A DNA stretch of 57,422 nt, filler included, from Sphacelaria rigidula (Eukaryota): NCBI GenBank assembly GCA_964200075.2. It is 7 parts of 7 records of this genome, joined end to end, with 100 filler letters (N's around TTAATTAATTAA, not from the genome) between each part and the next. Parts side by side here need not be neighbours in the genome. Positions count along the whole stretch, not along the records: positions 24,655 to 32,771 come from CAXNAA020012236.1; 6 more parts are not named here. The stretch is one strand, 5' to 3'. A program made the position numbers and the translations under genes. Every line of letters starts with the position of its first letter. Position 1 is the first letter of the stretch. Under the pieces are notes generated by a model. It saw only the letters and a list, made by a program, of their open reading frames with translations. It made no database searches and was not told the origin of the DNA. Of this stretch, positions 8,119 through 54,089 are shown piece after piece.

Positions 8119-8218
8119 NNNNNNNNNNNNNNNNNNNNNNNNNNNNNNNNNNNNNNNNNNNNTTAATTAATTAANNNNNNNNNNNNNNNNNNNNNNNNNN
8201 NNNNNNNNNNNNNNNNNN
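8119..8218. other. Artificial contig linker (N44-TTAATTAATTAA-N44); identical linkers at 16337-16436, 24555-24654, 32772-32871, 40989-41088, 49206-49305
   Basis: Six identical 100-bp spacers with a core that is a stop in all six frames. The segments between them are 8118, 8118, 8118, 8117, 8117, 8117 and 8117 bp, i.e. contigs sorted by length and concatenated. Confidence 0.98.
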
Positions 8219-8299: not shown

Positions 8300-11200
8300 A
8301 CATTGTTGTTATATAGAGGAATTAGCTTGAATAATAATACTCGAGCTCATCAGGTTCCCAAGTTCCCCCCCCAGGCGCTATTAGGCTTCATTATCCTGTA
8401 TTTCCGGATACAAGCTTCGGCCGCTGCACTGAGCATTTCTTGGTGTCACGCTCCTTTGATTGGAGCCCGACGACCAGACACACTGCCCCTGCCTTTTTAA
8501 GCACACAAGTTGCGTGCGACTATCATGTCGCACACAAATAACGCTGGCTCTTCCCCTAAATAGGAAAACCAATCGCTTCGTCGGACACGGAGTCAAACCA
8601 CTGGCGGTTTGAAATACTTTGATATGAGTGTCACATCACCTTCAACTCTTCGACGCACGTATGCGAGCGCTGTTCGATCTTCACGATCTGAAGACCAACC
8701 TTCGAGCAATGCTTGTTCTTCGAGGCTTGATGCCGCGACCTGTTCTCTCACGTACCGATTCGGACTCAGAGAACAGGCTTGTGCCACCGGCTGAGTCATT
8801 GGCTCCTGACGGACATGTCAGTGAACCCATAAAGGTGAATTTCGTAGCAACCCCCTCGCTGCGGCCTGTTCTTCCGAATCCCAATGTGGAATCCGAGATC
8901 AGGATTGTGCCCCCAGCTGAGTCGTTGCCCCTGGACACAATTGTCCAGCTTGGCCTTGTGACGGTTGCTTCAACCGTGGCACCCCGTCGCATGACGGTTG
9001 ACAACTCTCGCGACGACTCAGTCCCGACGAAGCGTATCGCTTCTGGAGCAAGAGACTTTGTCACGCGGGCTGCTTCCGTTACGGACCCCCGTCGCACGAC
9101 TCTCGGTAGTCCCGTGCGTCCTACTGCGCAGTCCAATGTCGAACCAGCAGTCGCGGCCATGCATCCTGCTCTGCAGACTATGCATCGCACTTCATCGGCG
9201 TCGGTGCACTCGCCAGCCTCAGCTCTCATCGAGGCATTTACGATTTTTTGCCACGCCACGCTCCAAGACCAAACGGCGTCTGCTCACGTGCAATTCAACG
9301 ATGATTCTGCATCTGCCACGCCCAAACCCGTACGTTTGGCGCCCTGGTCGGCGAAATTGCGTCCTCCGTTCGTCACTCGTGAAAAAGTCAACGAACACGA
9401 GTCCAGCCCCTGCTCGACGTCAAACAAGAGTCTTGCTCGCGCTCCTGACCGGCGCCGCACATCGGCAGTTGATCACGACCACGTCACCCGTGCTGGCAGT
9501 TTAAAGGACAACTCGCAGCAAAGCTGGAATTTATCGCGCATTTTTACACGCCCGAAGAAGGTCGCTCATGGTCGCACATATGACGGTAGTTCACGCCGCA
9601 GTTCCAATTCATCGCGCGCTCCGAAGCGCCCGGTGAATGCCAACCGTGACCGTACTCACGAGGATAATTCGCGGCACAGATCAAGTTCATCGCGCGTTCA
9701 CTCGCGCTCGAAGAACACCGATCATGCAACCGCGCGCACCCTTCCTGCTCCACATCTGTCACGCCGCCGTCATTTACGCGATGATAACACTGTACATGCT
9801 GACGATATCCAAAATATATTTTCGGACATGTCACCGGCTCTGGAATCCTCAATTGAGGGATCCGGCCGCACTTCATCGCCGAACCGACGATCCCGCAATG
9901 ACCGCGACCCACCGTCCCGCTCCGATGCTTCGATTATTCGTTCTCTTCAACGACAATTATTGACAGACCTCGAGCGACAACTATCAGCAATGGCGACCTC
10001 AAGATCCATTGCTACCGCCGCGAAGACCACGATGGAGACACTACAACCGCCGCTGCCGCCGCTGCTACCTTGGCCGATGCGCCTTTTGCCGCCCCCACGA
10101 CGGCCACAACACCCGCTGCAGCCCTGTCTGCGGTCGATACTGACGCAGATAGTGGCCCGGTTGCGGATGCCCCCGTGCGCTCGCCCCCATCTGTGGAGGA
10201 TCTCTCTTCGCTCGGCGACGAGCATTGCTCTACCGGGCTGCTGTTGAGGCTTTTCAGGGACCGCCCACGTGCGGAACAACTGGAACTCATTAACGACTAT
10301 GCCTCACATGCACCGGCGCTGGCCCACGACGTCCTTGAGCAACAGAGAGGGGCCAACGCCGCTGCGGCACGCGTCATCGCCGAAGAACACGCTGCCAAGC
10401 ATATAGACCTCCAGCGCCAGGCTAAACGAGCCCAGACTACCAACTCCGCGGCTCAACGCGCGCTACAGGAAGACCGCACTGCTGCGTTTGCGGCTCAGCA
10501 GCGCGTTAAGAACCTCGAGGAGCATGTCCGCCAAATTGCGAATGACGCGGCCACGTCGGTGGCCCGTCTCTCAAACCATCCGACCTCTCCGCCGTCCATC
10601 GGCAACACGACCGGTGGTCGCTCTCAACGCCAGCCAACGACCAATACGTCTACTTACGTCATCCCACGTAAGACGGACTGCCGCGGCCGCTGCCGTCCCC
10701 ACGACGGCCCCGACACGCCCGCCTCGTGCACCTAGCTCGGCGGCCGATGCCCACCTGATACCAGGTCTGCAACTGGCGCCTCACGAACGAGTGTGGCTTT
10801 CTCGTTCCACGGCCGATCATATCGGCCCCTTCCACAAGAGCAACCACCTCCACTGCTCCCGCGAGGCCTGGAACCTAATTTCGTAACGCATGCTCTTCGC
10901 TATTAGTGCTTATGTAGAGTAGGGAGCTTTCTTCTCCGACGAAGGCGTATCGGCACCCACCTTGGGCCAACTGGTCCTCCAAATGACTGACGGCGATCAC
11001 TCGGATCACCAGCGTTACGTCTGCGCTCTCACCGATCTTTTTGCGGCGCTACGCGCCGCTTACAACCCTGATCCCGGCGCCACCATCGCCGACGATGACA
11101 AAAATGAAGATAGGTGGGCTCCCGCAAGTACCAACGGCCGAGGAAATAAGAAGAACCATCGACGGGATGACGACGACAACGATGGAGGAGACTCACGCCG

Positions 11201-16300: not shown

Positions 16301-16932
16301 TAGGGGGGGGGGGGGGGGGGTTCTTTTTTTTTTGTTNNNNNNNNNNNNNNNNNNNNNNNNNNNNNNNNNNNNNNNNNNNNTTAATTAATTAANNNNNNNN
16401 NNNNNNNNNNNNNNNNNNNNNNNNNNNNNNNNNNNNGGGATGCGAGGTCAATGGTCTGATGACTACGGCATGCATGACCATGAGTACATCCCCCCACCCA
16501 GTTCTCAAATGCAATGCTGTGTTCGTTGTGGGTACTACCGACCGCAACTTGAACGCACCCGCGGCTGACAATAATAGAGAGTTTCGGAAAACGCTTGTTC
16601 GTCGTTCTAGAGTGCAAATATTTCAGGATGAGCGTACAGAATAATAAAAAAATAAATATCGAAAAAAAGGTTAGGGGATACCACATTTGACGTAGGGGGA
16701 ATCAATTCTCCGTCACACTCTGATCCTGAGATATTCGCAATCTGAAATGACGAAAAGACGTTTTCCGGAACTCTCGAATAAGAGTTATTTCTTGTTATTA
16801 CAGTATAACTCTGTCGTAGAATCACACCTAAAAATAGTGCCCCTTTCGAAATACCACGCGTTTCTCCTGTCTCGTGTTGCGCTGCTGTTGTACATATCGC
16901 CTAGGAATAAAGCAACATCTTCGACAGCAATC

Positions 16933-24054: not shown

Positions 24055-24402
24055 GACGCCCCGGTGGCTCAGTTGGTAACCTCGTAACCTTCTGATGGTT
24101 GAGTAGGGGGTTCGATTCCCGGAGTGGTCTGGAATCTTCTCACCCAATGCCCAATCGTGGAGAACGGCTATGTCGCGGGTAAACAAAATTCGACTTAACG
24201 GTCGACGAGGGAAAGGGACCGCTGAACCCCTCTCGCGATAAAAATAAAGGCAAGCACCGCAGAAGGAAGGTGGGGTATTAAAAACAGATAAAAAAGAAGA
24301 AATACCTGTTGTGTTGACTTTCCTCCTGTGTGACCCCGGCTGATGTGCCCAGATATACCGAAAGGTGTAGACTGGTGCCCAGAATAAATGGGACGACAAC
24401 AC
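24055..24402 (+). mobile_element. tRNA-derived SINE, full-length copy
   Basis: Pol III A box TGGCTCAGTTGG and B box GGTTCGATTCC at the 5' end, then ~270 bp of body shared with three other copies, ending in GGGACGACAACAC. Confidence 0.88.
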
Positions 24403-24430
24403 TGGAGTTTCTTTCGTATTTGCTTTTCAG

Positions 24431-24554: not shown

Positions 24555-24717
24555 NNNNNNNNNNNNNNNNNNNNNNNNNNNNNNNNNNNNNNNNNNNNTT
24601 AATTAATTAANNNNNNNNNNNNNNNNNNNNNNNNNNNNNNNNNNNNNNNNNNNNCGCGCGCGGTGTTCGCGAGCGCGAGGGGGGTGAGTGTTGTGTTGTG
24701 TCTCTTTTTCTTCTCAA

Positions 24718-24719
<2 letters not shown>

Positions 24720-24758
<39 letters not shown>
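24720..24758. repeat. (AT)n microsatellite
   Basis: Direct reading. Confidence 0.95.
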
Positions 24759-24761
<3 letters not shown>

Positions 24762-25365
24762 ACGCCACATTTGATCACAACCTATGCTGGGCGGTCTAAA
24801 GTAGGCTGGAGGTCAAAGCCTTGCGAGACAGGACGGGCAGTGGAGGAGATGCCGAAGAGCGAGAAACAGGGGGCGCGTCAACAGCTGAGTACATGCGTTT
24901 GGATACCATCGTGCTGTGTACCCGCGGATCTGAACGCCACAGTGAGAGTGGAAGGGGTCCACCAACAACACTGTCTCTACACTGTGGATGCAATTAGGGG
25001 GCTGAGTCACCCTCCTGCCGAACAGCCCGCCTGTTGGTGACAGAGGCTTCTGAACTCCCACCCGACGTGCACTCTATGTGAATGGTTTGGGCGGAGTTGG
25101 GCACGACAGATCCTTCAATTTTACTCCTCAAACTCGAAATACAACACACAGCGAAAAGTACAGCTGTGCAGCCCGCCAACGCTGTGTGTACAGGGCCGAG
25201 AATACTGTGCGCTATCCCGACGCCTCACACGCACAGCGGCTTGGCCTCTCCGCACGCGCCCCGTCACCCATCGTTGGTACACAGGACCACAAGACCACCC
25301 AACCACATCAATAACGTCGTCCACACGTGGACGCACGACTACGACGACGTTCCATCGCCTCGCAC

Positions 25366-25491
25366 CTAAGCTTTTAATAACCACGCATGGCTGTGCAGCG
25401 TGGCGGCCAAGCTCGGGTGCTCCGGGCCGAGAATCGTTTCCTCAATCGTCTGGCATCGCTCGTACAGTGACTCCACCTCATTGTACTTGCC
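25366..25491 (-). pseudogene. TPR exon cassette 3, 126 nt, last codon TAG
   Basis: cag|GGC…GCT TAG|gtgcga; GKYNEVESLYERCQTIEETILGPEHPSLAATLHSHAWLLKA*. Confidence 0.9.
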
Positions 25492-25785
25492 CTGCGATGC
25501 AGTACACAACGCAAGACCATCCGACACCTGTCCGCGTCAGACCTACGACGCCGGCGACACGCTCGCGCCACCGTGCCGCACAGCTGTGCAGCCCGTCCAC
25601 GCTGTGTGTACAGGGCCGAGAATACTGTGCGCCGTCTCGACGCCTCACCCGCACAGCGGCTTGGCCTCTCCGCACGCGCCCTGTCACCCATCGTTGGTCC
25701 ACAGGACCACAAGACCACCCAACCACATCAACAACGTCGTCCACACGTGGACGCACGACTACGACGACGTTCCATCGCCTCGCAC

Positions 25786-25911
25786 CTAAGCTTCCAACAA
25801 CCCCGCACGGTTGTGCAACGTGGCGGCCAAGCTTGGGTGCTCCGGGCCGAGAATCGTTTCCTCAATCGCCTGGCATCGCTCGTACAGTGGCTCCGCCTCC
25901 CTGTACTTGCC
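25786..25911 (-). pseudogene. TPR exon cassette 2, 126 nt, last codon TAG
   Basis: cag|GGC…GCT TAG|gtgcga; GKYREAEPLYERCQAIEETILGPEHPSLAATLHNRAGLLEA*. Confidence 0.9.
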
Positions 25912-26205
25912 CTGCGATGCAGTACACGACGCGGGAACATCCGACACCTGTCCGCGTCAGACCTACGACGACGGCGACACGCTCGCGCCGCCGTGCCTCA
26001 CAGCTGTGCAGCCCGTCCACGCTGTGTGTGCAGGGCCGAGGACACGGTGCGCCATCCCGATGCCTCACCCGTACAACAGCTCGGCCTCTCCGCACGCGCC
26101 CCGTCACCCATCGTTGGTCCACAGGACCACAAGACCACCCAACCACATCAACAACGTCGTCCACACGTGGACGCACGACTACGACGAAGTACCACCGCCT
26201 CTCAC

Positions 26206-26330
26206 CTGAGCTTCAAACAACCCCACACGGTTGTGCAGCGTGGCGGCCAAGCTTGGGTGCTCCGGGCCGAGAACCTTCTCCGAATGACCTGGCACTGCTC
26301 GTACAGTGGCTCCGCCTCCCTGTACTTGCC
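26206..26330 (-). pseudogene. TPR exon cassette 1 (kinesin-light-chain/TPR_12-like), 125 nt, 1-nt deletion
   Basis: cag|GGCAAGTAC…GCTCAG|gtgaga; translates GKYREAEPLYEQCQVI/(frameshift)EKVLGPEHPSLAATLHNRVGLFEAQ. Confidence 0.9.
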
Positions 26331-26528
26331 CTGCGATGCAGTACACAACGCGGGAACATCCGACACCTGTCCGCGTCAGACCCACGACGCTGGCGAGACT
26401 TCCGCCGCACCGTCCTGCGTAGCTCCTGGCAATCTGGTGATATCTTCCATCATTCAGTTGTAGATGTTTCTAATGACTCGTTTTTTGTGGGGTTACTTTA
26501 TGGATGTATCCCATTTACTAACAAGCCG

Positions 26529-26866
26529 GTCGCCCCGGTGGCTCAGTTGGTAACCTCGTAACCTTCTGACGGCTGAGTAGTGGGTTTCAATTCCTGGAGC
26601 GATCTAGGATATTTTCTCACAACATGCCCAACAGTGGAGAGCGACTATGTCGTGGGTACACAAAGTTGAACTTGACGGTCGACGAGGGAAAGGGACTGCT
26701 GTACCCCCCTCGCGAAAAAAAATGAAGGCAAGCACCGCAAAAGGAAGGTGGGGTACCTAAAAACAAAAACTCCTGCGTTGACCTTCCTCCTGTGTGACCC
26801 CGGCTGGTGCGCCCATATATACCGAAAGGTGTAGACTGGCACCCAGAATAGATGGGACGGCAACAC
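26529..26866 (+). mobile_element. tRNA-derived SINE, full-length copy
   Basis: Aligns end to end with 24055-24402 (A box TGGCTCAGTTGG, decayed B box, same body, GATGGGACGGCAACAC end). Confidence 0.88.
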
Positions 26867-27120
26867 TTGCATACTCGTAGCGTTTCCGTTATTTGGGGCA
26901 GGTGCTACCTCAAATTGTGTCATATGGATTATTTCGTATTATCCGTCTATTTCATGTAATTCTTTCCGGATAATTTTTCATATATATATATATATACATG
27001 TACACGTCAATAATTGATATTTTCCGGTATCACTTGTTTTTCGCAGATCAGATGAAATAGGAACAGAGTTCCAGGTTGTCGTTATTTATTCAATACCATC
27101 AATATAAATAAGGGTGATGC

Positions 27121-28335
27121 TATTTCCAAGTCGCGACTTGGACATAAAGTCGCGACTTGGAAATAGTTATGCCCACCCCTAGCTTCAATTTGACTACCCG
27201 CCCGCGTTCGTCTTATGTGCCTTGCATCGACACCAGCAAGACACGTGCAGTAGTACACTCACACAGTCCGTAGCCATCGTTCAAGCCATCGCACGGTGCA
27301 AACGGCCTCGTAGCGGTCGAGAAACGCGCCTGCTACACAGTGTTAAATAATACCGCCGCCCCACTGGAGGTGGACATAAGCTACTCTGTGCAAGTCGCGA
27401 CTTGGACATAGCCTTTGTCCACCATCAGCGATTGGGATACCTTCCCGCGCTAGTCCCATGTGCCTCGTATCGACACTGAAGCACCTGCAATACACTCACA
27501 CAGTCCGTAGCCACCGTTCAAGCCATCGTACGGTGCAGACGGCCTCGTAGCGAACGAGAAACGCGCCTGCTGCACAGTGCCAAAACATTCCGCCGCCAGA
27601 CTGGAGGTGGATATGAGCTATGTCCAAGTCCAGCGAGTGGAATATCCCCACGCGCTCATCCTGTGTGCCCTGTATCGACACCACAGCACCTGCAATACAC
27701 TCACTCTGTCCGTAGCCATCGTTCAAGCCATAATGGGGTGCAAACGGCGTAATTGCAGACGAGAAGCGCGGCTGCTGTACACAGTGCCAAAGCATATACA
27801 TCTGAATCCGACTGTACTTGGACATAGCTTTTCTCAAAAACGCGACCTTGGCAAGTTGGACATACGGCATGTTGGCTGAGGGCGTCGGAGCACGTAATCA
27901 CGTGCTTGCGATTGATAGCGACTGCGTTGCAGACAAGAACACCAACAGGTGATTGCCGCTATTCATTTACAGTGTTCAATAAACTAGAAATGTGCACGCT
28001 ACTCAGCTGGCTCGCGTCGTACGTTATCAACGTTGACACCAGTGCTACCAACGTCATACACGCCCTGTGTATTGCGCACTGCCCGTGTAACCCGAGGCTG
28101 TTGGGTACGAAGTGCGGATAGCGTGTACCAGCCGTAAAGGTAGTAGCTCTATGAATCCATGAATACACCCATTCTTCGTCGCGACTTGGACATCGCTTAT
28201 GCCCACCTGCAGTCGGGCGGCGGTATTTGTTTTACACTGTGCAGCAGGCACGTTTCTCGCTCGCTAGGAGGTCGTTTGCGCCGTGCGATGGCTTGAACGA
28301 TGGCTAGGGACTGTGTGAGTGTACTACTGCACGTG
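27121..28335. repeat. Diverged ~200-240 bp repeats (three direct, one inverted) with palindromic TCCAAGTCGCGACTTGGA motifs
   Basis: Core TACACTCAC.C.GTCCGTAGCCA.CGTTCAAGCCAT…GAGAA.CGCG.CTGCT..ACAGTG at ~27254, ~27491 and ~27696, and reverse-complemented at ~28235-28325. Confidence 0.85.
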
Positions 28336-30665
28336 TTCGAGGGGTAACGTGTATCCTACAAACGAATTGAAATGGGAAAGGTAGTAGAGAGAAAATGTGA
28401 ACATTTATTTGTTGTTCGATCCTCGGGCGCGGGAGAAACGAGAGAGACGGGGGGGGGGTTCCCACGATATTGCATGCCATAGTCATATGACCATTGACTG
28501 TGCATCCCTACAAAGCCAGGACGGAGCACGCCGGGCTTCCGCCGGACCAGGTTCGCAATTAATCACCAAGCGTGCCCCCCACCATTTTCACGGCCCTTGT
28601 GTCCCGACGCCACTTGAAGACGCCTTCACTGTATGGCAAGTTGTGCGGTCCCCGACCACTTTACGGCCCTTATCCCGACTTATCTTTTTTGAAGTCGCAA
28701 TTTTGATACTTTTTGGACCACGGCCTTTTTGTCAAAATGTGTATAATGGTGGAGCGTGGATGTTACTAACAAGCGTATCCGGCTGTTGCTGTTCAGTGTG
28801 GCCGTGTGTATATACACTGGCAATAGAGTACAGTATATGGGATTTGTACAGCAGAGGTCTTTTGACATGAATTCTTGTTTTGCTCAATTTTTTTAATTAC
28901 AGTTGGGCAAAAAGAGTAATTGACCCCAACAGCCCTTGCTGTACAACTCCCATATATTATAACTGGTACGAGATTTCCACAGCACGAGTGCCTTCAGAAA
29001 CGATACAGAGGATTTCGGTCTTGACATAAACCTTCCTGGGAGACCCCAACGTTGAAAACCCTCTAGCAGATTGTGAATGCCCAAGATCCTTTAGTGGGGA
29101 GTGTCAAAGCTCACGGCATGTTGGGAGAAGTTAGGAAAAAATTACCAGATAATTTACACCCCATAGTCAGGGAAATAAGGGTTTCGCTCAGCGCTGTAAG
29201 CTCACATCTTCGGGCACATCTATTCACTATAGTTGAAGCTGAACGCACAAGTGTAGGGGTGGGTGGTGGAGTGACGTGTGCCGTATGCGGTCCTCCCGTG
29301 CTCACGACGGTGCAACAATGGAGGAATAACTTTTCTGATTTCTGTAAAAAGATAATGCGTCGTTATTCTCTTTCTCGATTGCATTACAGGCGAACATGTC
29401 CAGAGATTTCGATCATCACATCACCTGTATACTAGCAAACCAGACTCACATACTGTAACTGAATATATGATTTCTAACCCCAAGTTGTGGGGGACTTAGG
29501 CCGAATACACCGTAGCCAAGTGATCAAGACCGACTTAATTGTTCGAGTACTTGCTCGTAGGCTGAAGGACAGGGACAGGTTTCGAGATCAGCAACTGAGG
29601 TGTTCAGGATTAATCACACGGTAAAACAACTGTGCATCGGCACATTATTAGAATATACAAACCCCGCGAAGCCCACCAAACTTACCGGATTTTGTCAATA
29701 TTCATTGATCAATTTCTTGCAACAATGTTAACAGAAAATACGAGCTGGGCTAGCCGGAAAACGGATTTAAGGTCTCAAAGCAATATCTCATCGACATAGA
29801 TGAGTTGGCCCATGATCCGCATATCACATTGATCGTCTTATCAAGGGAAAGGTGTCCATCTACAAAAAAATCTGAGCCATTTTTTCTCGTTGATTAGACC
29901 CCATGTCTTCTAGTAATTCCTATGCTGTACGGAGATAGCGTCCACACTCAAATCTATATGAAACCTCGAACGATGCATTCATCGGATGATCAAGATTTTT
30001 GGTATGGACCTTCTTTGTTTGGAGCACGGAGCGACGATAGACTCCTTCACCCAATTCGTAATCTATCTCGGGATATGGCGCACATAAGATTCCACACTAA
30101 AATAGAAATATTTTTACGAGCAGAGGTACTAGATGCCCTACATCTGGATATCGCGTCTCACTTTTTGAGAGTTGTGCTATGAAATTTTTTCATGGAAAAC
30201 CGCTAGTGGATTATGAAATGAAAAAATATACATTCATACCTTTTTTTCGTTTTCGATTTTTCTTTCATTTTTTTTCGTGTTTTTAGTGGAGTTTCGAGGA
30301 GAAATCAAGATTGCTTTTAGGCATGTCTCAAAAAAAGTTTCAGCTCAATTTTTAGAATTGTTATTTGAAACTCATCATGGAGAACCACGAAGGTGTGCCG
30401 AATGAAAAAAATATATGGGATTTCATTTTTTTTCTTCATAGAGGTTACGGCGTTTTCGTGAAAAAAAAATGGTCTCCACCATACTAGAACGCCCTGAACA
30501 AGTGGAAAAACGAAAATAAATCACTTTGACCCACCGAGTTTTGTCAATTATGTCCTAGCGAGGGCCCACGCATAATTTCGATACACAAAAACCAAACGTG
30601 CGCCGGTGAGTGGCCAGCGAAATACAGTTGAGAATTTCTACAGACCCAATTTTGAATGGCGAATG

Positions 30666-31003
30666 CGCCGGCCAATATTAGGAGTTGAAGCGTGACATTT
30701 GGTATGGACAATGTATAGGGAATGAAAAATATTACGACGGTACCAAAAGTTTTTTTTTTTTCATGAGTCAAGGGCAAAAATGATTTTTTCAGGTATCAGT
30801 AAAATGCTCTCAACTAACAAGGGAAAAAAACTCTCGGTGCACTCGTAATTATTTTTCCATACCCTATGCGTTGTTCATACCACATTTTACGCCCAGTAAA
30901 ATGCCCTCAACTCATGAAAAAAAAAAAAGTACATTCGGATTTTTTCCATGCCCTATGCGTTGTCCATACCAAATTTTACGCCCCGACTCTCAATATTGGC
31001 CGG
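30666..31003. repeat. Imperfect inverted repeat with ~110-bp arms (foldback/MITE-like)
   Basis: 30666-30776 is the approximate reverse complement of 30901-31003. Confidence 0.7.
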
Positions 31004-32347
31004 CCCATGGGCTTGCTAACTTAAAATCCGCTCCTAGGCTGACCCAGCCCGTTGTGTCAGTAGATTTTGGTAAAATGAACAGATCGCCTTCCCCCTCCAG
31101 TACACAGGTTAGTTTCGGTTGGTTTTATCAGTCGATACGAGTAAATAGCCCGTGTATCAGGAGGGTGTTATCGACCGTGGAACACCCTTTTTTGGCTCTA
31201 GTGCAATAAGTGAGTAAATTTTCGGAAAAATAAGTCTTCTGTATTTCTTCACGAATACAATCCGGACAGGTTCGATCGACCGAAAATACCAAAGAGTCAG
31301 GATCTGGGCTGAACGTGGCATAACCCCCGACGACCGGTCAGTCCGTGGGTCACTCAATACTGACTCCAGATGATTTTGTTCCTAGAATATGGAGCGGATA
31401 CAAGAATTTTCAGATCCCCAATGCGATGAGCGGTGGCAAGCATAAGAACGTAACAGTGTCTACAATTACGAATAATTTCAAAATTATTCAGACTTAAGGC
31501 GCCCAGTACTGTAGTACGTGATACCTTACTCATGCAGAAAGTGGCCGTCCGTGTACAGACTATTCCACGAATCTGTGAGGCTATCGAAGGGTCCCCCCAC
31601 GAATCCGTCTGTCGCGAATATGAGTTCCCCCGGATTTGCACATATTGGGGTCTCCACGGAATCGAGATCTCGTTCCCAGAAAACTGCCTGACGAGGGTCG
31701 CGATTAGTCACATGGAACGCAATTCAGGATCCAAAATAGGATACGTGAAATAGAAAGTATGGCGCAGATGTTAGACGCTCGCGTACATTGCACAATGAAG
31801 TGGTAGTGCAATAGTGTTTTGAGAACCTGATACATACCCAGTGAACTGTAAAGGCATCTGTTCGAGTAGCCATTGCCAAGCTTTGCCCTGGGAGCTGAGA
31901 GAGTTCGCTCACGTCCAGCTCGATGTAAGACTGGGGTATTCGGTGAGAGCGAGTGGCGGGCGTTTTAGTAACGTAACGAGTGACCGTGGTTGTGCCCGAA
32001 ATATGACTTTCGTTTCGAGCGGAAGACCCCAGACCGTGAGCGTCGTAATATCAAAATGCTCGGAAGGGGCTGATATCGAATGACGAAACCTTCCAGAATA
32101 CGACTAACCTATCTCGACAACACCTCCCGCCTAAGGATGGACTTGGGTCGGAACAGTCACCAAATTGACCAGCCTGGCTTTTTGCCTCGGCAGACATCCC
32201 GAGGTTGATCAGGCCACATCTTACATTTCGCGCTGCGGGTGTATTTCGCATTAAATCAATAGTTTGCAGAAGCTGTGTCTACAGTAATCTTCCGACACAG
32301 GTCGAGTACAGGCCACTATGTCCAAGGCAAACATACCAATAGCTCAC

Positions 32348-32702
32348 CTGTAAACAGTACAGTCTGCCGATCACCGAATACACATAGGCCACCTCCGTGT
32401 ACTCAGCTCGACCCAACTCTCCCAGACTAGCCCTATACGTCTCCACCTCCAGCTGATCATTGCCGGAAAGCTCCTCCAGTGACCGCCACAAACGCATCAG
32501 CGCGTACATGTTCGTGCTCAGCCCTTCGTTTTCCCCGTTCTTACCAAACTCTCGGACTACGGACAGTTGGCCCAAGTACTGCCTTTGGCGCCTCACCGCA
32601 TCCTCGACCAACCCGCGCATACCCTTGCTTGTACACTTTAGTTTGATGAAGTCCAGCAGCAGGTCGTGCACATAGAAGGAGCCTTCCACCTCATGCAACA
32701 AA
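32348..32702 (-). CDS. Exon (5'-truncated) of a brown-algal-type NB-ARC–TPR protein: winged-helix/MHD region and linker to the TPRs
   Basis: LLHEVEGSFYVHDLLLDFIKLKC…YALMRLWRSLEELSGNDQLEVETYRASLGELGRAEYTEVAYVYSVIGRLYCLQ|gtgagc. VHD is an MHD-like motif. The phase-0 donor after CAG matches the phase-0 GKY… TPR exons 6 kb downstream on the same strand and contig. The P-loop is not in the window. Confidence 0.8.
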
Positions 32703-34200
32703 CAGCCGATTTTATATTTTGGGGTTCATACAAAATATGGGGCTGAAGGGGCATATCTGTCTTGCACGGAANNNNNNNNNNNNNNNNNNNNNNNNNNNNN
32801 NNNNNNNNNNNNNNNTTAATTAATTAANNNNNNNNNNNNNNNNNNNNNNNNNNNNNNNNNNNNNNNNNNNNAGAATCGTTAGGAGCCTCTGAACCAGACA
32901 AAATTTCGCGAAAAAAGTGCACCCCTACCGTAGCATTGCTCCTCTGAGAGGTTCGTATATTTGCTTCTGCTCCTTGCCCGCGCTGTCCTGATGGCCTCGG
33001 ATGCCGGCCACGCTCACACATGTGTATGCACACGAGCGCATGGTGGCGACAGCCTGTAGCCAAAGTAGCAACAGTATCTCACACCTTGCCGGCGAGCGGG
33101 GCAGCGGCCGCTCCAGAAGAAGATACATAGGGGCCTTCACTAGTAGAGGGAGCTGCTGAAGTGAGCTTGGGGGAGGCGGCGTGTCCGTCATCTCAGCGGT
33201 CTCCATGTGATATCTGTACTCGGTAGCTGACTGCATCCGCCAACGCCATGGCTATAAACTAGGGAACAGCGGGCTGGGTGTCCCCCCCCCCCCCCCCCTC
33301 AAAAACTCAATCTTTCGACCCTGGGGTTTAAGATCCAGAAATCTTTTTCGACAGACCCTTGGGTAGATCAAAAAATTTTGCACAAATGTGCGTTGTATGG
33401 ATCACTACGCAACGATCGATGGACGATTTTTTCTTTCGACTTTTTTATTTCTTCATCGTTTTTCGGGCGTCCGACGGGATCCGAGTTTCCCCGAAAACCC
33501 TGGGACCCCCCAAAAACGGTGAAAAAAATCAAAAAGTAAAAATATCTCGACCGTCGAAATTTGCGTAATGACCCATGATATAGAAAATTGTACAAAATTG
33601 CAGGGTCTAACTCCTAAAAGCGGCCTCAAGCTTTGCCGATGAATGCTTCAAGGTTGAAAAGCGTGAACCAGCCTTTAGCACGACTCAAACTCCACATTTC
33701 CAGAGCTGGTCGAGTCATGCGTAAAACAGTCTCAGCTCCGAAATTTCCCCCCGGGGATTATAGGAGGCCTTGCACACTTCCTGCGGTAGCTTGCCACTGA
33801 AGTCTCTGATATCCACGAACAGGATCTCGTCGTGAAACTGTGAACACGTGACATTGCTACCGATAGAAGATACACATACACACAACACATGAAAAAATGT
33901 CAAGTCAGAACGAATTCGCACAACTTACTCTCTATCAACGCGAGACTCTCAATTTGACGAGACCCTGTTAAATGGCTATATAGCGCCGGAGATGTCTATT
34001 ATTTGTGGAATCGGCATCATTTTCGCTTGAGTTGCTGCATGATCCAGATTTGCAACACTGGCGGTCAAAGGGTAAACATTCCGAACAGTTAGTCGGTGGA
34101 CATATAATCCCGAACCAACCAAGCAAACACCAACGTACCATTCTTTCGAATCGCGGCAAGTGAAAACTCTACCCTTATACACTCGCGATGAACGTACAAA

Positions 34201-35748: not shown

Positions 35749-38700
35749 TTACCCCGTAGCACCTAGTTCTGGTAGGTGGATGGCGGAATCCAGTCCCCGA
35801 GGGGGGGTGTCTAACTCCAGCCCAGTATCCGTACCGCTAGCTCCCCCGCCTCGACTACCGGACAAGACATGACGCCACGACAGGCCTTTCGATGCAGCCC
35901 GAGAGAATCGCGGCAGAAGCGACTTGTCCACGTCCTGAGAAGAAATACAATCGAAGGGGGGGATGGCGGGATGTGGTGTGATGGGTAGTTGTTGAGTAGA
36001 TGGGTGAGTACACGGTGCGAGAGCGGGGCGTGGGAAACGGGAACTGACGCACCAACATGGGTTAAAGTATAGAAAGCGCCACAACGACCGCTCCCGCAAA
36101 TTATTTCGTGTTTAGCGTAACCTAATGCTGTCTCGTCATTTGGGTGCAGGATGACAGCATGGGGGAAATCTTGGACAGTTTTCCTCAGCACAGAGGGACA
36201 CCCGGGTGGTGCCAACTTACAGGCACCTGCGCAAAGGTATTTCGCGTGACACTGCCCGACATGATTTTGGCCGGTCATCTGCAAAACGACGGAAGTCATC
36301 TGAACACTCCACCTTTGGTCATATCTTTTTCTTCAACTGGGAGAAGGTTTCACCTACTTGTAAGCCAAAACTCTTCCGGACAATCACGCCCGCGGGTGTG
36401 GCGTGTCAAGATGTCACAACAACCACTGAGCTACTCAGTCAGCACTAAATCAGTATCGTGACATCTCCACAAAAGTTCGTCCTGGTGTCCGTCCAAGCTA
36501 TCACCATAAATCGAACTCCCTGTTTCATCCCAGGGTTCGTCATTTCCTGTAACCAAGGCTGCAACCATGTAGGATTTATTGTGCTCATTCTTGCCTGACG
36601 CATTTGCACGCCTGGCGCATCTACACCGGCTCACCGCGGTGTGCTCTTCTATATTGCTTTGTCGTGAAAAAAAAATGGACAAGAACGATTATGGGGGGAA
36701 TCCAATCCAGAGACTAGCTTTTGTTAAGATGCAACAACATGCTCGCCCACGTCATTCGTTCTGTCACTACGACTATTCTGTCATGTGCACGCAGGAAAAG
36801 GAAACGCGGAAGATTCCCCGTGGTTCTCGACGAGCACTGCTGTCGAAAAGTTAGCGTGTCCCAGCGTTGAGGTTACCTTCACTGTACTAATTTCAAGTGA
36901 ATATGTGACGCGGAAAAAGACAGCAACAACCTTCTCTGGCATGAACCACCCATTCATGAGGGAGACTCTATGGCTTACTATCTAGCAACTGTATTGCACG
37001 ATGAACAAAACAGGACATGCACCACGGCTTCCAAGGTGACGCTGGCGCGGAATCTCATGGGCCACGTCCCCCGCGCTGTCTTATGCTAGTACGAAGTCCC
37101 AGTCGTGTCTCAGAAGCGCAAATGTCAGTTGTTAATGTGATAAAATTTGTGACTAGAGTGTTGGCACGCAGGACCGAGTGTAGAACGCGACAGAGATTAC
37201 AATTTTTATGAGTGCTATACTTATGACCTCCAAAAACGTGTGTGGAGACGGGGAGGGGAATATTGTAAGCGAATCGCGTATGTCAGAGCACACTACCCTA
37301 AGCTAGAACCTTCTGCCGCCTCAGTCGTCCCGACGAGGGTTGCTCCGACGTCATGGTGTTTGTTGACCTTTCATTTCATTTTCTTATTTTTACGTCTCAG
37401 TCTACCATGTCGTTATGTTCGACTTTTTATGTTCCTTCTTTTTCTTCAGCGAGTGTTTTCAATTTTGTTTTCTTGGGTACGTCTATCATGCGACAACGGC
37501 TGGATCCCTGGGGGGTCAGTTAAAGTGCGACAATCAATCAATCAAATCAATCAAACCAATCATGCTACTCCGTCTGATTTACACCAAACAACGCGCGCAA
37601 CTGAAAGCAAACTTGTGTTGCGTGTAACATATCCCCTGTGCGATGACGGCCTCACGAACTCAAGGTATAGCAAGCTGGCGACCTGCAGCCATTCTGTTCG
37701 GCTACTTTGAATCGTCGAAAGTGACCCGTCGGAATGCTCTGTGACATCTTTATTTCGCGAAATGTAACACGGGTTGACCATCACGAGAGTGATGTCGGAC
37801 TGTAATTTAGGTGCTCGCGGGTATTCGTGAAGGAGAACGACTGGACGCGAATCAGCCACACGTCAAGACAGGGAACATGTCATCGCACGTCGGTGTATCC
37901 GCCCATGTCGTCTTTAACGGCACGATCTGTGACATCTTTATTTCGCGAAATGTAACACGGGTTGATCATCACGAGAGTGATGTCGGACTGTAATTTAGGT
38001 GCTCGCGGGTATTCGTGAAGGAGAACGACTGGACGCGAATCAGCAACACGTCAAGACAGGGAACATGCCATCGCACGTCGGTGTATCCGTCCATGTCGTC
38101 TTTAACGGCACGATCGTCTTGAGAGGAGGGCACGACTCTCTGGACAAAATACAAGAGGACGTCAAGGGCATGAACCCCTCGTGCGCGAAGCAGCAAACAT
38201 TTTGATCGCACGAAGTACCGTCGCTCAACACATACACGAATACAAAGCATCCCCCTCCTCCCCCTTCCTACTGACTGCTCGCTCCACCCATAACTTACCA
38301 AATGAGAGCAAACCGCTCTCAGATTGGCCACCATCCTCAGAACGGGAACCATCGCCTGGGGAAGCCTTCTGACCGCCATGCCCCTCATCAGCTCCATGCA
38401 ACCCTCACCCAGTAAGTCCAACGCGTCGTCACGCTGAGTATCAAACAGTCCGCGAAGGATCAAGACATGAGTAAGAGGAGCCCTGGCCACCATGAGCATT
38501 GGTGACGGCCGAGGCGGCGGCGGCGGCGGCGGCGCCGATGACTCCTGCCCCTCATCACCGCTCACGCTCGCCTCAGCCTGACCCTCGTCTTCGCCCAACT
38601 CCTCCTCGATATCCTCCCCCTGCGGCACTGCTGCCTCTTTTTCACTCTCGCCGTCTCCATCTGCCGGCTCCGGATCTTCGTCCCCTTCTGCCGGCGAACC

Positions 38701-40873
38701 GGCCGCCGCCTCTTTTGCGTTTTCTGCGTCGATGCCTAGAGACGAATCAAGAGCCACTTCCCCGACGGCAGCCACGGCATCAACTGCCTCCGTCTGGGTC
38801 CAGCGTGTGCTCGATGATGACGGTGGTGGAGTCGACGAGTCACCGCCCCCGCGGAGTTGTTCGGCGTGGTAAGTGGAAGTTCGCTCGATACCGCCGGCGG
38901 GTGGCAAGTCGATCACGAGGCCGACCCCTTCCATCGCAGCTCTGGCCTTGCTCTCGGCCGCCGGCGACGGGTTTGCGGCGTCCTCATTCTTGAGCTCGAC
39001 CATCGTGCGATACAGGCGGCAAAGCGCTCGCCGCTGCTCTTCTGTCAGCGTGCATACGGCCGACAGGTCAGTCAGGCCCACCTGCAACGGAAGACGCCGA
39101 GAAGAGAGGACGGCAGCGCGTGGCGGTACGATACCGTATGGTGCACAGGCATCCGGTTGTTCTATGTTTGAGGAAGTCGAATGTTTGAGCAACAGGAAGA
39201 GTTGCAGCACAAGGATTCCGTGATCAAGACTTGTGTGCAAGCGAAGCACGTGAGCGATATCGTCATGAATCGTTGGAGAGGACGCGGGGTTCAGTATGAC
39301 GACGAGCTATATCAGCAGCAGTTCTAGTGGGTACGGTGACGCTAACGCACAGGCCTACGACATGGGTCAAGTGATGCAGGGTGTACCGGTGATGGGGCGA
39401 TTCGCGAGTCCTGCGCCCGTCTACAGAAAAGCATTGCATTAAAGATACAAACGGCTACCTCGGTTGAATCATCACGCCCTTCGGCTGTTCGCTCCTCTCG
39501 TTGCTTTCCTAAAAGCACTACTGTACTACCCAATTTCGACAGCACATTCGTGTTCAGTGTATGCCTCGTTGCCTATTAAATATGAAGCACTTAGCGACAC
39601 ATGAAACAAACTAGATTCCTTGATACAACCATCCCCGTGAGTTCCACCCGTCACGCACCTGGCCGCCATACATATACAATAGGTTGTCTGGCATGGGGTT
39701 GGACGGAAAGCACCCATCCGCGAGACACATCTGCCCGAACACGGTGAACAATCTGTCCACGAATCGGCTCCTCTCCTTCTCCCCACGAGCTGCCGCGTGG
39801 TCCATCACCCTGGCATCCGAGACATCTACCCCGCGTAGGGCCGTTGTTACGAGCAGTCCCCGTCGCGCGAGCTTGCCGAGCTCTGGGCAAGACACCACTT
39901 GCGGCACCACCACCAAAGAACCGAGCATTCCCGCCCGCGCGAGGTTATAGCGGATCTTCTCGATGTTATCGGCCTCGATGCGTAGATCACCCGCTTTGTC
40001 GACCGCTGCCGCAACCTCCGCCACGACGCCCGACAGATCTAGATCGAGTTTGGATCGATAGGCCATGCGCCGCAGCATTCGTCGGGCGGCAGCGACATCG
40101 TCGGCGGCGAGGTCGAGCTGCCGAGGTACGTTTATCTTAATTACAACCGGCTGAAGGGTCGGCTTCGGCGGCGAATGCGCATCCGCGATACTCTGCGCCT
40201 TATCCGTTCCGTCAGCATTACCCACGTTCTCAGGGTTAAGCTTCGCCCACCTCGTCCACCCCGGTAAGTCAGCACTCCTTGGTGCCGCAGAGGTAGAGCT
40301 GCCGCCACTGTTGCCCGTTAGATACGAACTTGACCACGCGGCAAACTCGTCGGCGTCGCCGAATGGTAGCTCGGCGAGCGCGTGGTAGAACCTGGTGAGA
40401 ACGGATCCCGTGGATGCGACAGCGGTCACGTTGTGGAGGCGAATCAATGGGCCTTCCATACTTATCATGGGTGTATCCCACGCCATCAAAGCCTCCGGGG
40501 ACTGGCTCGTTGGCAATATAGGGCTTGTGTCGCCACCCTCCATCTCTTTCTCCACTTCTTCCAGCAGTTCTCCTGCACTATCGTCCTCTTCCTCCCCGCT
40601 GCTTTGTCCCTTTCGAATGCGCCTACTAGATTTGCTCTTCCTTTTTCTTCCTTTCTGCCTCTCACGTCTCACGTTTCGATTCTTCGTTCGTTTCGCCGTA
40701 GCCGACAGCAATCCTCCCCCGACCCGCATCGTGCCGACGATGATCTTATGGGGTATCCGCCAGCCGAGAAGACCGACCCCAGTACGTTGACCGTCCCCGC
40801 GACGTACACGCCGAGCGCGGGCGCCGAACTCCCGCTTCAGCCTCCGGTCTAGTCGTCGAAATTTTCCCCAGCC
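35749..40873 (-). CDS. ABC1/UbiB (ADCK)-family atypical kinase-like protein, 5'-partial; exons 40873-39659, 39081-38299, 35934-35749
   Basis: Three in-frame phase-0 exons (1215, 783 and 186 nt) with AG/GT ends and a terminal TAA. Motifs VVIKINVP, DLRIEADNIEKI, VVVPQV, LLVT, FGQMCLADGCFPSNPMPDNLL and VGLTDLS follow the ABC1 order (VAVK, ELDF..EA.N, V.VP.V, G.FHADPHPGN, LLDFG). Confidence 0.78.
37476..37560 (+). repeat. Dispersed terminal repeat ending in (AATC)n
   Basis: GTCTATCATG.GAC.ACG.CTGGA.CCCTGGGGGGTCAGTT.AAG.GCGACA(ATCA)n; reverse-complement copies at ~57254-57330 and, more diverged, ~20960-21032 at the end of the YR element. Confidence 0.75.
37738..38115. repeat. Recent intronic tandem duplication, 188-bp unit, two near-identical copies
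   Basis: TCTGTGACATCTTTATTTCGCGAAATG…GTCGTCTTTAACGGCACGAT occurs twice with only a few substitutions. Confidence 0.95.
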
Positions 40874-41471
40874 CTGCCAAACAAACGGTACGAGGTATAT
40901 GAAGGCCAAGGAACCTCCCCCCCCCCCCCCCCATGGGGGGGGGGGTTCCCCGGAAGGTTTAAATGGGGGGGCCCCCACGGGAAGGGGTNNNNNNNNNNNN
41001 NNNNNNNNNNNNNNNNNNNNNNNNNNNNNNNNTTAATTAATTAANNNNNNNNNNNNNNNNNNNNNNNNNNNNNNNNNNNNNNNNNNNNAGATGGGTTGAT
41101 CCCTTGACACCACGGACTCATCCCGAGGAAGGGGAGGGGTTCAAAGTGTGATGGGAAAAAATATGTATCAGAGGAGCACGGACAGAGCCCGTACATGTGT
41201 TTTGCCAAGGCCCTTTTTTGGCTAAAAAGTGGGTGGGTCGACCCATGTTTGTCTCTAACACTTCAATATATTGGCGGTTCCTGCTTTGTCGTGCGTATGG
41301 GTCCGTATTCACGGCTTTCATATTCCTCTTTTCATTTTTGACGTACATCTCGAACAACGTTCACATTATTCTGATTCGCTGGATTTAATTCGAAGAAATG
41401 AGCATATAAGCCATCTGTCTTGACCGACAAGTGAAACAAAGTTGGCGCTAATACATGTACCCCAAAACCAG

Positions 41472-42779
41472 GAGGAATGCCGATCATCTACGCGAAAAGA
41501 CCTGTCTCTGGAAGTTGCATGCCTCTGCAACCTTGCCTTGGCAAATATAAAGCTGGAGCGTTTCGGTGAAGTCGAAGAAGCGTGCTGTAGGGCTCTTTAC
41601 CTGTCCCCCTCTTGCTCGAAGGCACGCTTCCGCCGTGGACAAGCCCGGCTTGCCTCTGGAAAACTCGTCGATGCCGCGGCAGACTTCCAGGAGGCAGCGA
41701 AGCTGGAGCCCGGTAACACTGAGATTTGCAGGATGCTCCTGCTCTGTAAGGAGAGAAAAGGACTTCAGAAAGATAAATACGGTGAAGATACCCATTTCAG
41801 TGGTTCGGAGAAGGGGGGTTTTGTTGGTGTAGTGGGGAAAGAGGACCGAGACAATGAGAGCACGTGCAGTGTAGAATGTAACGATGGTCACAATAATGAT
41901 GCCGCCGGATGCACCGAGGATGATGGTCCCCGGGATATCGCAGCCTGCGACAAAGTGAGACTAGCCGATGAGAAGACATCTGAATCTTCCTCTCAGTCCC
42001 GTTGCGAGAATATCGACCGCTTTGGCGCTAATTCCGATGAGAGCAACGATGCTAAACCAGATGCGTGTTCAACAAGGAACAATAGTGTCATCGGGGCATG
42101 CGAGCGACACCGAGAGGCAAGGACAACCGATCGTGTTGAACAGGACGAGAGTTTCACCTCCAGCACCAGGACATCAGGCTTTTTGGTGTCTGGTTGGTTG
42201 AGCTCAGAAGCACGAGCAGAGGCAGAGATGCTCCTGAAAAAGCAAGAGTCGGGCCCCGTTTCATTTTGCAAGGACGAGCGCCTAAAGCCCGGCAATATTA
42301 CCCACGGGTACGAGAAAAGTGTCGTCACTGACGGCGGCAGTTCGGGAGTATCTGACGGCAGTACGAGCGTGTCGTACCTCGTATCCGGTCTTAGAACAAG
42401 CGAAATCAAAAGCCGAGCTGAACGTTCGAAAACACGTACACAGTCGGACTGGTCGTCGCTAGACGACGAGGAGAATCACAACCTGAAGGAGCTTCGACAG
42501 CGACTGGGGCAGTCGTCCGTGGCGTTGCACGCAGAGCTTGAACTCGGAACCCCGCATCGTAAACCAACTGGAGCCGAGAAGAAAAAAAAAAGCAGTAGCA
42601 AATGCTTGAGCCAAGGGCAGGGGGCCTCGAAGTTGGAAGGACCAGACAAGCGACGTGTGCAGGAATCTGAGTGGGCGTCCTTGGTGGCAGAGGAGAAGCA
42701 GGTTCGCGAAGCATTCCGATGCAAGCTGGCAGGCTTTGGTCACAAGGAAAAGGGCAAGAAGAGAACGACGAAAAAATAA
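41472..42779 (+). CDS. Last exon of a TPR co-chaperone-type protein (FKBP/Cyp40-like TPR followed by a low-complexity tail)
   Basis: Long open frame: VACLCNLALANIKLERFGEVEEACCRALYLSPSCSKARFRRGQARLASGKLVDAAADFQEAAKLEPGN. Probable acceptor …CTAAT…ACCAG|GAG at 41471/41472; Lys-rich C-terminus; TAA at 42779. Confidence 0.82.
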   Translation, partial: EECRSSTRKDLSLEVACLCNLALANIKLERFGEVEEACCRALYLSPSCSKARFRRGQARLASGKLVDAAADFQEAAKLEPGNTEICRMLLLCKERKGLQKDKYGEDTHFSGSEKGGFVGVVGKEDRDNESTCSVECNDGHNNDAAGCTEDDGPRDIAACDKVRLADEKTSESSSQSRCENIDRFGANSDESNDAKPDACSTRNNSVIGACERHREARTTDRVEQDESFTSSTRTSGFLVSGWLSSEARAEAEMLLKKQESGPVSFCKDERLKPGNITHGYEKSVVTDGGSSGVSDGSTSVSYLVSGLRTSEIKSRAERSKTRTQSDWSSLDDEENHNLKELRQRLGQSSVALHAELELGTPHRKPTGAEKKKKSSSKCLSQGQGASKLEGPDKRRVQESEWASLVAEEKQVREAFRCKLAGFGHKEKGKKRTTKK

Positions 42780-51203: not shown

Positions 51204-51567
51204 GTGTGTAGTGTGTGCTATCATCGCATCTATTCTGGACGCCGGTCTACACATTTCGGTATATGAGGGCGCATCAGCAGGGGTCACACAGGAAGAAGTT
51301 CAACACAGGAGCTTTTTTTTGTTCTTGTTTTTCCTATTACTCCACCTTCCTTCTGCCGTGCTTGTCTTGATTTTTTATCGCGAGAGGGGTTCATCAGCAG
51401 TCCCTTTCCCTCGTCGACCGTTGAGTCGAATTTTGCGTACCCACAACATAGTCGCTCTCCACTGTTGGGCGTGGTGTGAGAAAAAAATCCGAGATCGCTC
51501 CGAGATTTGAACCCACGACCCGCCAACCGTCAGAACGTGTCGAGGTTTCTAACTGAGCCACCGGGAC
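51204..51567 (-). mobile_element. tRNA-derived SINE, full-length copy
   Basis: Reverse complement of the 24055 family, with A box TGGCTCAGTTAG, B box GGTTCAAATCT and a CA-rich tail. Confidence 0.85.
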
Positions 51568-53875: not shown

Positions 53876-54089
53876 GAACCCCCCTGGGCGATGAGAAAGA
53901 AAAATAAAAGGCAAGCACCGCAAAGGGAAGGTGGAGTATTAAACACAGACAAGAAAGAGAAAAATTCCTGTGTTGACCGTTCTCCTGTGTGACCCCGGCT
54001 TGTGCGCCCACATACACCGAAAGGTGTAGACCGGCGGCCCAGAATAGATGGGACGACAACACGCGCGCGCGCACACACACACACACACA
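53876..54089 (+). mobile_element. 5'-truncated copy of the same SINE with a (CG)n(CA)n tail
   Basis: Matches the 3' ~190 bp of the SINE body (AAGGCAAGCACCGC…CCTGTGTGACCCCGGCT…GATGGGACGACAACAC). Confidence 0.85.

Follow-up and report, generated by a model that had tools for sequence, protein, structure and literature searches.

A probable NB-ARC–TPR pseudogene fragment with three tandem exon-plus-intron cassettes in the brown alga Sphacelaria rigidula

Our computational analysis of a 57,422-nucleotide (nt) stretch of DNA from the brown alga Sphacelaria rigidula (assembly GCA_964200075.2), referred to throughout as the window, revealed on the minus strand a locus that is probably what is left, in pseudogenised form, of a brown-algal NB-ARC–TPR gene of the immune-receptor type, with a recent tandem duplication of an exon-plus-intron segment into three units. 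The locus consists of an upstream exon, hereafter exon X (32348–32707), and of an array at 25160–26424 in which exons of the TPR_12 type and 294-nt introns recur with a period of 420 nt. The array lies 6,017 nt downstream of exon X and both belong to one continuous piece of the window (24655–32771), in agreement with a preliminary description of this DNA that had placed the array about 6 kb away on the same contig and strand. The same description had read it as a receptor locus; a working receptor is not borne out, given the lesions found in all three cassettes and in exon X, and we infer that the locus is untranscribed or non-functional.

The three-cassette array and its lesions

Tandem Repeats Finder placed the repeat at 25160–26396 (period 420, 2.9 copies, 92% matches, score 2082), a repeat search returned three copies at spacings of 420/420 and 420/419, and a DNA profile of the unit run against the whole window matched exactly three units (E 1e-146 to 1e-151), with no further match at E<=10. 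The repeat also takes in about 70–94 nt upstream of exon A. Unit A has no sharp left edge, which could be set anywhere from 26382 to 26424, and microhomology at the duplication junction was for this reason dropped as a candidate feature. Read along the minus strand, the array comprises the exon of cassette A (26206–26330; 125 nt, one nucleotide having been lost near 26283, with the end CAG/GTGAGA), the intron A–B (25912–26205; 294 nt, identical to the intron B–C at 271/294 positions), the exon of cassette B (25786–25911; 126 nt, 41 TPR codons and then TAG), the intron B–C (25492–25785; 294 nt), the exon of cassette C (25366–25491; 126 nt, ending in TAG and carrying 11 private changes) and a third, partial copy of the 5′ part of the intron (25160–25365; 206 nt), at which the array ends with no exon beyond. 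The minus-strand acceptor TGCATCGCAG, followed by the exon start GGCAAG, is common to all three units, and the donor reads AG followed by GTG(A/C)GA. Hence, of the array initially described as 126-nt phase-0 exons with introns of about 294 nt, the period and the introns were recovered, but there are three units rather than a long array, the exon of cassette A has 125 nt, and the sense end expected of TPR exons is replaced by TAG in cassettes B and C.

The cassettes carry the TPR features that NB-ARC–TPR genes have in brown algae. Pfam TPR_12 was matched by cassettes B (1.1e-8) and C (2.8e-7), and a profile of 31 distinct units of 42 amino acids (aa) from the relatives described below matched B at 1.2e-22 and C at 2.7e-18; on cassette A the same profile gave two half-matches in two frames, covering positions 1–19 and 17–42. 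The GKY…Q register is present at exon lengths of 125/126/126 nt, and the signature LYERCQA…LGPEHP…LHNRAGLL is common to the cassettes and to relatives from S. rigidula. Downstream of cassette C (24655–25160), tblastn and the profile search revealed no further or relic TPR exon, with nothing at E<1. In the public sequencing run X1, the summed contig depth over the bins of the array was 122–1,582 versus about 60–85 in the unique flanks, which hints at further cassette-like sequences, although depth is not copy number.

As assembled, no cassette would be usable in the frame of exon X, A being frameshifted and both B and C being stopped. The deletion in exon A sits among nine substitutions within 24 nt, at a site that is not a homopolymer, and no indel was seen at this site in contigs of runs X3 and X4, which come from different samples and two studies; outside this site, the X4 contigs are about 1–2% divergent from the window. 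In exons B and C the last codon is TAG; A has CAG there, and the terminal codon of the family encodes Q. Splicing exon X in silico to A, B and C kept the TPR frame for 16 residues only, after which translation continued in another frame until a TAA in C, and splicing X directly to B gave an in-frame product with one TPR unit that stops at the TAG of B. The locus holds 3 TPR units versus about 9 to 14 in the full-length relatives P0134 and P0133. Furthermore, a form with +2/−1 nt at 26283–26288 (net +1, in-frame) occurs in one X1 contig (47.9 of 212 depth) and in one contig of X8, a run only guessed to be RNA; this form probably represents an intact paralogous cassette.

The 5′ end of exon X is also damaged. 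In relatives, the homologous exon runs ~19 residues further upstream (QD..GAK…FL..NALLHEV, in annotated proteins and in read-through open reading frames, ORFs), and these residues next to the shared part can be aligned from one relative to another and also with residues annotated as coding in P0004. P0001 and P0002, two of the read-through ORFs, extend 28–32 residues further upstream than the part they share with exon X; these residues find no match here, the similarity of both ORFs beginning at 32707, and tblastn similarity stops at 32704–32707 in all relatives tested but P0015, which reaches 32716. Upstream of this edge lies unrelated sequence with an in-frame TGA at 32728–32726. No AG dinucleotide occurs from this TGA until 32691–32690, where the AG falls inside the conserved LLHE/V and provides no usable acceptor, so that the exon start formerly set at 32702 has no splice acceptor. 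Exon X abuts a high-copy element, since the contig of unique depth ends at 32722 and the summed depth beyond rises about 10,000-fold (691,061 in bin 32514–32771 versus about 60–85 in unique parts). The edge of this repeat at the truncated exon (32723–32771) contains the TGA, and at 32768 each DNA-type run has 15–16 contigs with loose ends (agreement 0.88–0.99). Thus, the open frame of the family is interrupted by the frameshift in A, by TAG in B and C and by the TGA without acceptor upstream of X.

Exon X and its brown-algal relatives

Exon X codes for the end of a winged-helix region, where the MHD-like motif lies, and, after a linker, for the first TPR half-helix; it is truncated at its 5′ side. 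Its 3′ end is intact: the peptide …LYCLQ ends with CAG at 32350–32348, followed by GTGAGC in phase 0, within an open stretch at 32725–32279. A minus-strand exon with the motif VHDLLLDF and a phase-0 end (CAG/GTGAGC at 32348) was therefore correctly recognized in the preliminary description. In an alignment of 13 sequences, the columns D21, L22, L24 and F26 of this motif (32648–32671, minus strand, from translation) do not vary, and conservation is at least 90% at H20 and D25. The motif falls within an APAF-1-like winged-helix domain (WHD) match of the relative P0045 (E 2.6e-5; 24.8 bits, under the 27-bit cut-off), and its position in the relatives supports the predicted label 'MHD-like'. Exon X itself matches no Pfam family at E<=1, and its assignment therefore rests on its relatives.

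A search of 1.84 billion representatives with exon X yielded 126 relatives at E<=1e-3, a set that narrows to 61 at E<=1e-10 and to 5 at E<=1e-30. Fifteen were domain-scanned, among them 12 of 386 aa or longer. NB-ARC was present in 10 of these 12 (9 above the Pfam cut-off, P0015 scoring 23.4 versus the 23.5-bit cut-off), TPR_12 was above cut-off in 7, and six carry both domains. Hence the family check proposed earlier for the peptide of exon X came out in favor of NB-ARC–TPR proteins, in which the part matching exon X always follows NB-ARC and either precedes the TPRs or coincides with their start. Ten clusters were looked up, and the eight with a source name all come from brown algae, namely S. 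rigidula, Nemacystus decipiens, Cladosiphon okamuranus and Ectocarpus spp.; the closest named relatives are those from S. rigidula (64–70% identity). A second search brought up the S. rigidula proteins P0133 (1226 aa), P0132 and P0004, which share 69–70% identity with the locus over exon X and have the same junction, …LQ followed by GKF…. Unlike P0133, which consists of NB-ARC and about 14 TPR units, the locus has no NB-ARC in view and three broken units.

In the relatives, the residue right after the equivalent of exon X is the first residue that matches cassette A (tblastn); the part homologous to X runs directly into the start of cassette A, and the order X then A is thus collinear with intact proteins. 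The sequence comparisons support the membership of exon X in the brown-algal NB-ARC–TPR (STAND/NLR-type) family, of which it retains the homologous post-NB-ARC winged-helix/linker region with the conserved hHD motif, minus ~19 codons on the 5′ side. Similarity to NB-ARC itself was found nowhere in the window (tblastn with 14 + 3 relatives), the continuous piece ending 67 nt upstream of exon X. The intron that follows exon X (32120–32347, minus strand) is conserved with other loci: VSYW, its first codons, is shared by P0001 and P0002, and the alignment of P0002 reaches 32120, so that introns of the family are recognisably homologous between copies. The one locus brought up by a metagenome scan with exon X, a weak one named L001 (43% over 42 residues), was rejected as unrelated, with no match to 14 family proteins at E<=1e-3 (tblastn) and with a 42-nt period as its only tandem repeat.

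Origin of the array and alternative readings

The locus is best explained as what is probably the decayed 3′ portion of an NB-ARC–TPR (STAND/NLR-type) gene, of which the 5′-truncated MHD-like/linker exon is left, followed by a 6-kb former intron invaded by repeats and by three 420-nt cassettes with one 42-codon TPR exon each. The array would have arisen by two successive tandem duplications of an exon with parts of its flanking introns, via unequal recombination or replication slippage. The repeat boundaries show that the duplicated module is one exon plus parts of both flanking introns, which bears out the earlier proposal that the exon with its flanking intron is the unit of duplication. With the breakpoints inside introns, the '294-nt intron' is therefore a junction product of the tandem duplication.

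Across the cassettes, similarity is no lower between introns than between exons, close to what the preliminary description had noted. Cassettes A and B are identical at 113/126 exon and 271/294 intron positions, B and C at 113/126 exon positions and at 197/206 of the first 206 intron nt, and A and C at 103/126 and 187/206 positions, respectively. Tandem duplication of a segment made of an exon and its flanks would explain why the introns are equal in length and as alike as the exons. Over 420 aligned columns, private changes number 36 in A, 8 in B and 20 in C, and, there being only three copies, no pattern of sites conflicts with the tree ((B,C),A) and no mosaic tract is demonstrable. This pattern would fit a first duplication that split A from the ancestor of B and C, and a later one that split B from C. 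The introns had been termed homogenised, which is not needed to account for their likeness, because B and C as the closest pair and A as the outlier fit two successive tandem duplications; three copies cannot separate tracts of homogenisation or conversion from recent duplication. Since B and C share their TAG, the stop is older than the last duplication or has spread by conversion. The last duplication would accordingly have copied an exon that was already inactivated, or conversion would have spread the stop, in either case as a process at the DNA level that acts regardless of function.

The exons show no better conservation than the DNA around them, variable sites making up 25/126 of the exon and 41/294 of the non-exon positions (p=0.14), and rough Nei-Gojobori ratios of nonsynonymous to synonymous change (dN/dS) are 0.60, 0.66 and 1.04. 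These values give no apparent sign of purifying selection, as would be expected from neutral decay, though a diversifying receptor could look similar. In cassette C, private changes are more frequent in the exon (11/126) than outside it (9/294; p=0.02), with few sites involved.

Several points weigh against decay of a single pseudogenised gene. The excess of exon changes in cassette C could come from past diversifying selection rather than from neutrality. Exon X is still open over 118 codons and canonical splice sites are kept in all three cassettes, so that the decay is recent or some of the lesions are possibly assembly errors. No contig unambiguously confirms the two TAGs; they are not among the differences listed for the short-read contigs, which resolve the array poorly and cannot settle its structure. 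Upstream NB-ARC exons could lie beyond the repeat, past the end of the piece 67 nt upstream of X. In addition, judging from the reading frames, skipping of cassette A may join X to B in frame as far as the TAG, giving a short product.

There is a small chance that exon X and the array were left by two different NB-ARC–TPR copies and came together through rearrangement or the activity of transposons. The 6,017 nt between them are dominated by dispersed high-copy repeats, the upstream edge of the array lies about 100 nt from an insertion resembling a short interspersed element (SINE), and loci of this family are often clustered with pseudogenes (PMC3341825). However, strand, order and phase agree: exon X ends in …LQ and cassette A starts with GKY, which are adjacent in the relatives, and the contigs of P0001 and P0002 share with the locus the start of the intron that follows X, so that X has kept its own downstream intron.

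It is distinctly unlikely that the locus is a working NB-ARC–TPR receptor with variable TPRs supplied by the array, the lesions being assembly errors or bypassed by splicing from X to B. The open exon X, the canonical acceptors and donors of the cassettes, the frame that X and B share up to a TAG, the net +1 form at the A site in one X1 and one X8 contig, and the alternative splicing of TPR exons reported for the family in papers that cite the original work would all be in keeping with such a receptor. Against it, four independent lesions have to be explained away, and the TAG is identical in B and C. The deletion in A lies in the cluster of nine substitutions and not in a homopolymer, with no indel in X3 and X4, and the contig with the in-frame form, at 47.9 of 212 depth in X1, fits a paralogue. 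Exon X lacks its 5′ part and an acceptor, and the product of X and B would have a single TPR unit versus about 9 to 14 in relatives. The public runs speak neither for nor against transcription of the locus: none of the runs listed as containing the stretch is recorded as RNA, and no splice joint from X to a cassette was among the joints listed for their contigs. Run X8 has no cover on 31701–32513, which includes most of exon X; its value of 125.1 in bin 32514–32771 is not assignable to exon X, as this bin is shared with the high-copy repeat; and over the cassettes it covers parts of the bins, with a sequence unlike that of the window where A has its deletion. The earlier suggestion that the number of repeats could change without breaking the frame is inapplicable here, the frame being already broken.

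Coding of a repeat protein by the plus strand of the array, as the plus-strand open frames 25041–26558 (506 codons) and 25471–26460 (330 codons) running antisense across it might suggest, has next to no probability, since 420 is a multiple of 3 and a frame open in one unit stays open in its copies, no Pfam match was found at E<=0.01, and the strong TPR matches and the splice sites are on the minus strand.

The repeat-filled interval, the other pieces and comparison with known systems

The interval between exon X and cassette A (26331–32347, minus strand; 6,017 nt) is presumed to be the former intron filled with repeats. Neither tblastn nor the profile search detected TPR or NB-ARC similarity in it (nothing at E<1), and 7 of 7 ORFs scanned in it were without Pfam match. 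Very high summed depth was recorded within or near it at 26281–27093, 28449–28719 and 29533–31429. A SINE-like dispersed repeat of ~340 nt occupies 26526–26867 on the plus strand, roughly 100 nt from the array edge, with copies in other pieces at 24057–24403 (83%), 51224–51565 (81%, opposite strand) and 53899–54062; in X1 its summed depth climbs to as much as 3.3 million, exceeding the depth of unique DNA by a factor of tens of thousands. From box-like motifs we presume that this repeat has a tRNA-like head; ARAGORN and Rfam gave no tRNA match for it. Tandem repeats of 205–245 nt, 74–88% alike, were also observed at 27147–27826 and 28178–28336, with an inverted partner about 900 nt off (88% over 162 nt), and may constitute a foldback element or one similar to a miniature inverted-repeat transposable element (MITE) inside the former intron. 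Two matches to Rfam plant microRNA precursors, at 28829–28961 (minus strand, 33.4 bits) and 30731–30849 (minus strand, 27.8 bits), are below the gathering score of 83 and most likely represent hairpins of repeat elements.

The window as a whole is made up of seven pieces of 8,117–8,118 nt with six linkers of the form N44-TTAATTAATTAA-N44 between them (8119–8218, 16337–16436, 24555–24654, 32772–32871, 40989–41088 and 49206–49305). The pieces are not genomic neighbours, because public contigs running past 32768 differ from the start of the next piece and do not run into it, and linkage to the locus is assumable only inside 24655–32771. Among 62 longer ORFs over all pieces, the sole Pfam match was to TPR_1/TPR_2 (1.8e-7 and 9.9e-7) in a 451-codon open frame of another piece (41424–42776, plus strand), which has no similarity to the NB-ARC–TPR relatives in tblastn. 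Other pieces hold further long open frames at 4091–5551 (plus strand, 487 codons), 8628–10244 (plus strand, 539 codons) and 37972–39306 (minus strand, 445 codons), for which no Pfam match was found at E<=1e-4.

The type of locus described here is known from Ectocarpus, where, according to Zambounis et al. 2012 (PMC3341825), 13 of 24 NB-ARC loci have TPR domains composed of 126-nt exons of 42 aa, the exons being in phase 0 and of equal length, and the TPR search having used fragments of GKYxEA[E/D]PL…LLxxQ. The same paper describes inactivated TPR exons on the coding strand, with nonsense changes, a lost splice site, truncation and, in its fig. 2E, also a frameshift; 5 of the 24 NB-ARC loci are given as probable pseudogenes and half of the loci as clustered. 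The 126-nt TPR exons with GKY…Q, the inactivated exons and the pseudogenes are common to the Ectocarpus loci and to ours. Contrary to those loci, the one in S. rigidula has three cassettes only, all of them defective, together with a truncated upstream exon. It also differs, in another species, by two introns of exactly 294 nt that are 92% alike, which would follow from the recent tandem triplication of the cassettes; a statement on intron similarity between TPR cassettes was not found in the passages of PMC3341825 considered here. Exon shuffling and alternative splicing in brown-algal NB-ARC–TPR genes already appear in PMC3341825 and were proposed by Teng et al. 2023 (Plant J), as cited in PMC11378527 and PMC13449251, and this idea equals that of the preliminary description, in which TPR exons are modules to be shuffled or skipped. 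Judging from these sources, both the locus type and the proposal of exon shuffling and alternative splicing are already published. The brown-algal ROCO genes with leucine-rich repeats (LRR) are similar in having one repeat per exon, exon duplication and inactivated intronic copies, and differ by 72-nt LRR exons in phase 2 and by a GTPase core instead of NB-ARC (PMC3341825, PMC11378527). In fungal NLRs, tandem repeats that are nearly identical likewise make up the sensor domain and change by unequal recombination; introns do not interrupt them, and the likeness is one of mechanism only (PMC13449251).

Taken alone, the finding is of little weight: to a family whose birth-and-death evolution and structure of one repeat per exon are already known, it adds a further pseudogenised NB-ARC–TPR locus, this one from a brown alga other than Ectocarpus. 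It nevertheless provides a clean, small example in which the duplicated unit is a 420-nt DNA segment with breakpoints inside introns, and in which duplication or conversion would be able to act on an exon already carrying a stop codon. Such an example bears on whether the shuffling of repeats is controlled or is a passive result of illegitimate recombination, a question raised in PMC13449251. A rather speculative extension, to which we give a low probability, is that passive turnover of cassettes at the DNA level continues after inactivation and that dead arrays serve as a reservoir of TPR units for live paralogues. If this were true, cassette turnover in these candidate receptors would be passive, neither selected nor controlled, and the reservoir would resemble in its logic the pseudogenes that act as donors where other receptors or antigens diversify.

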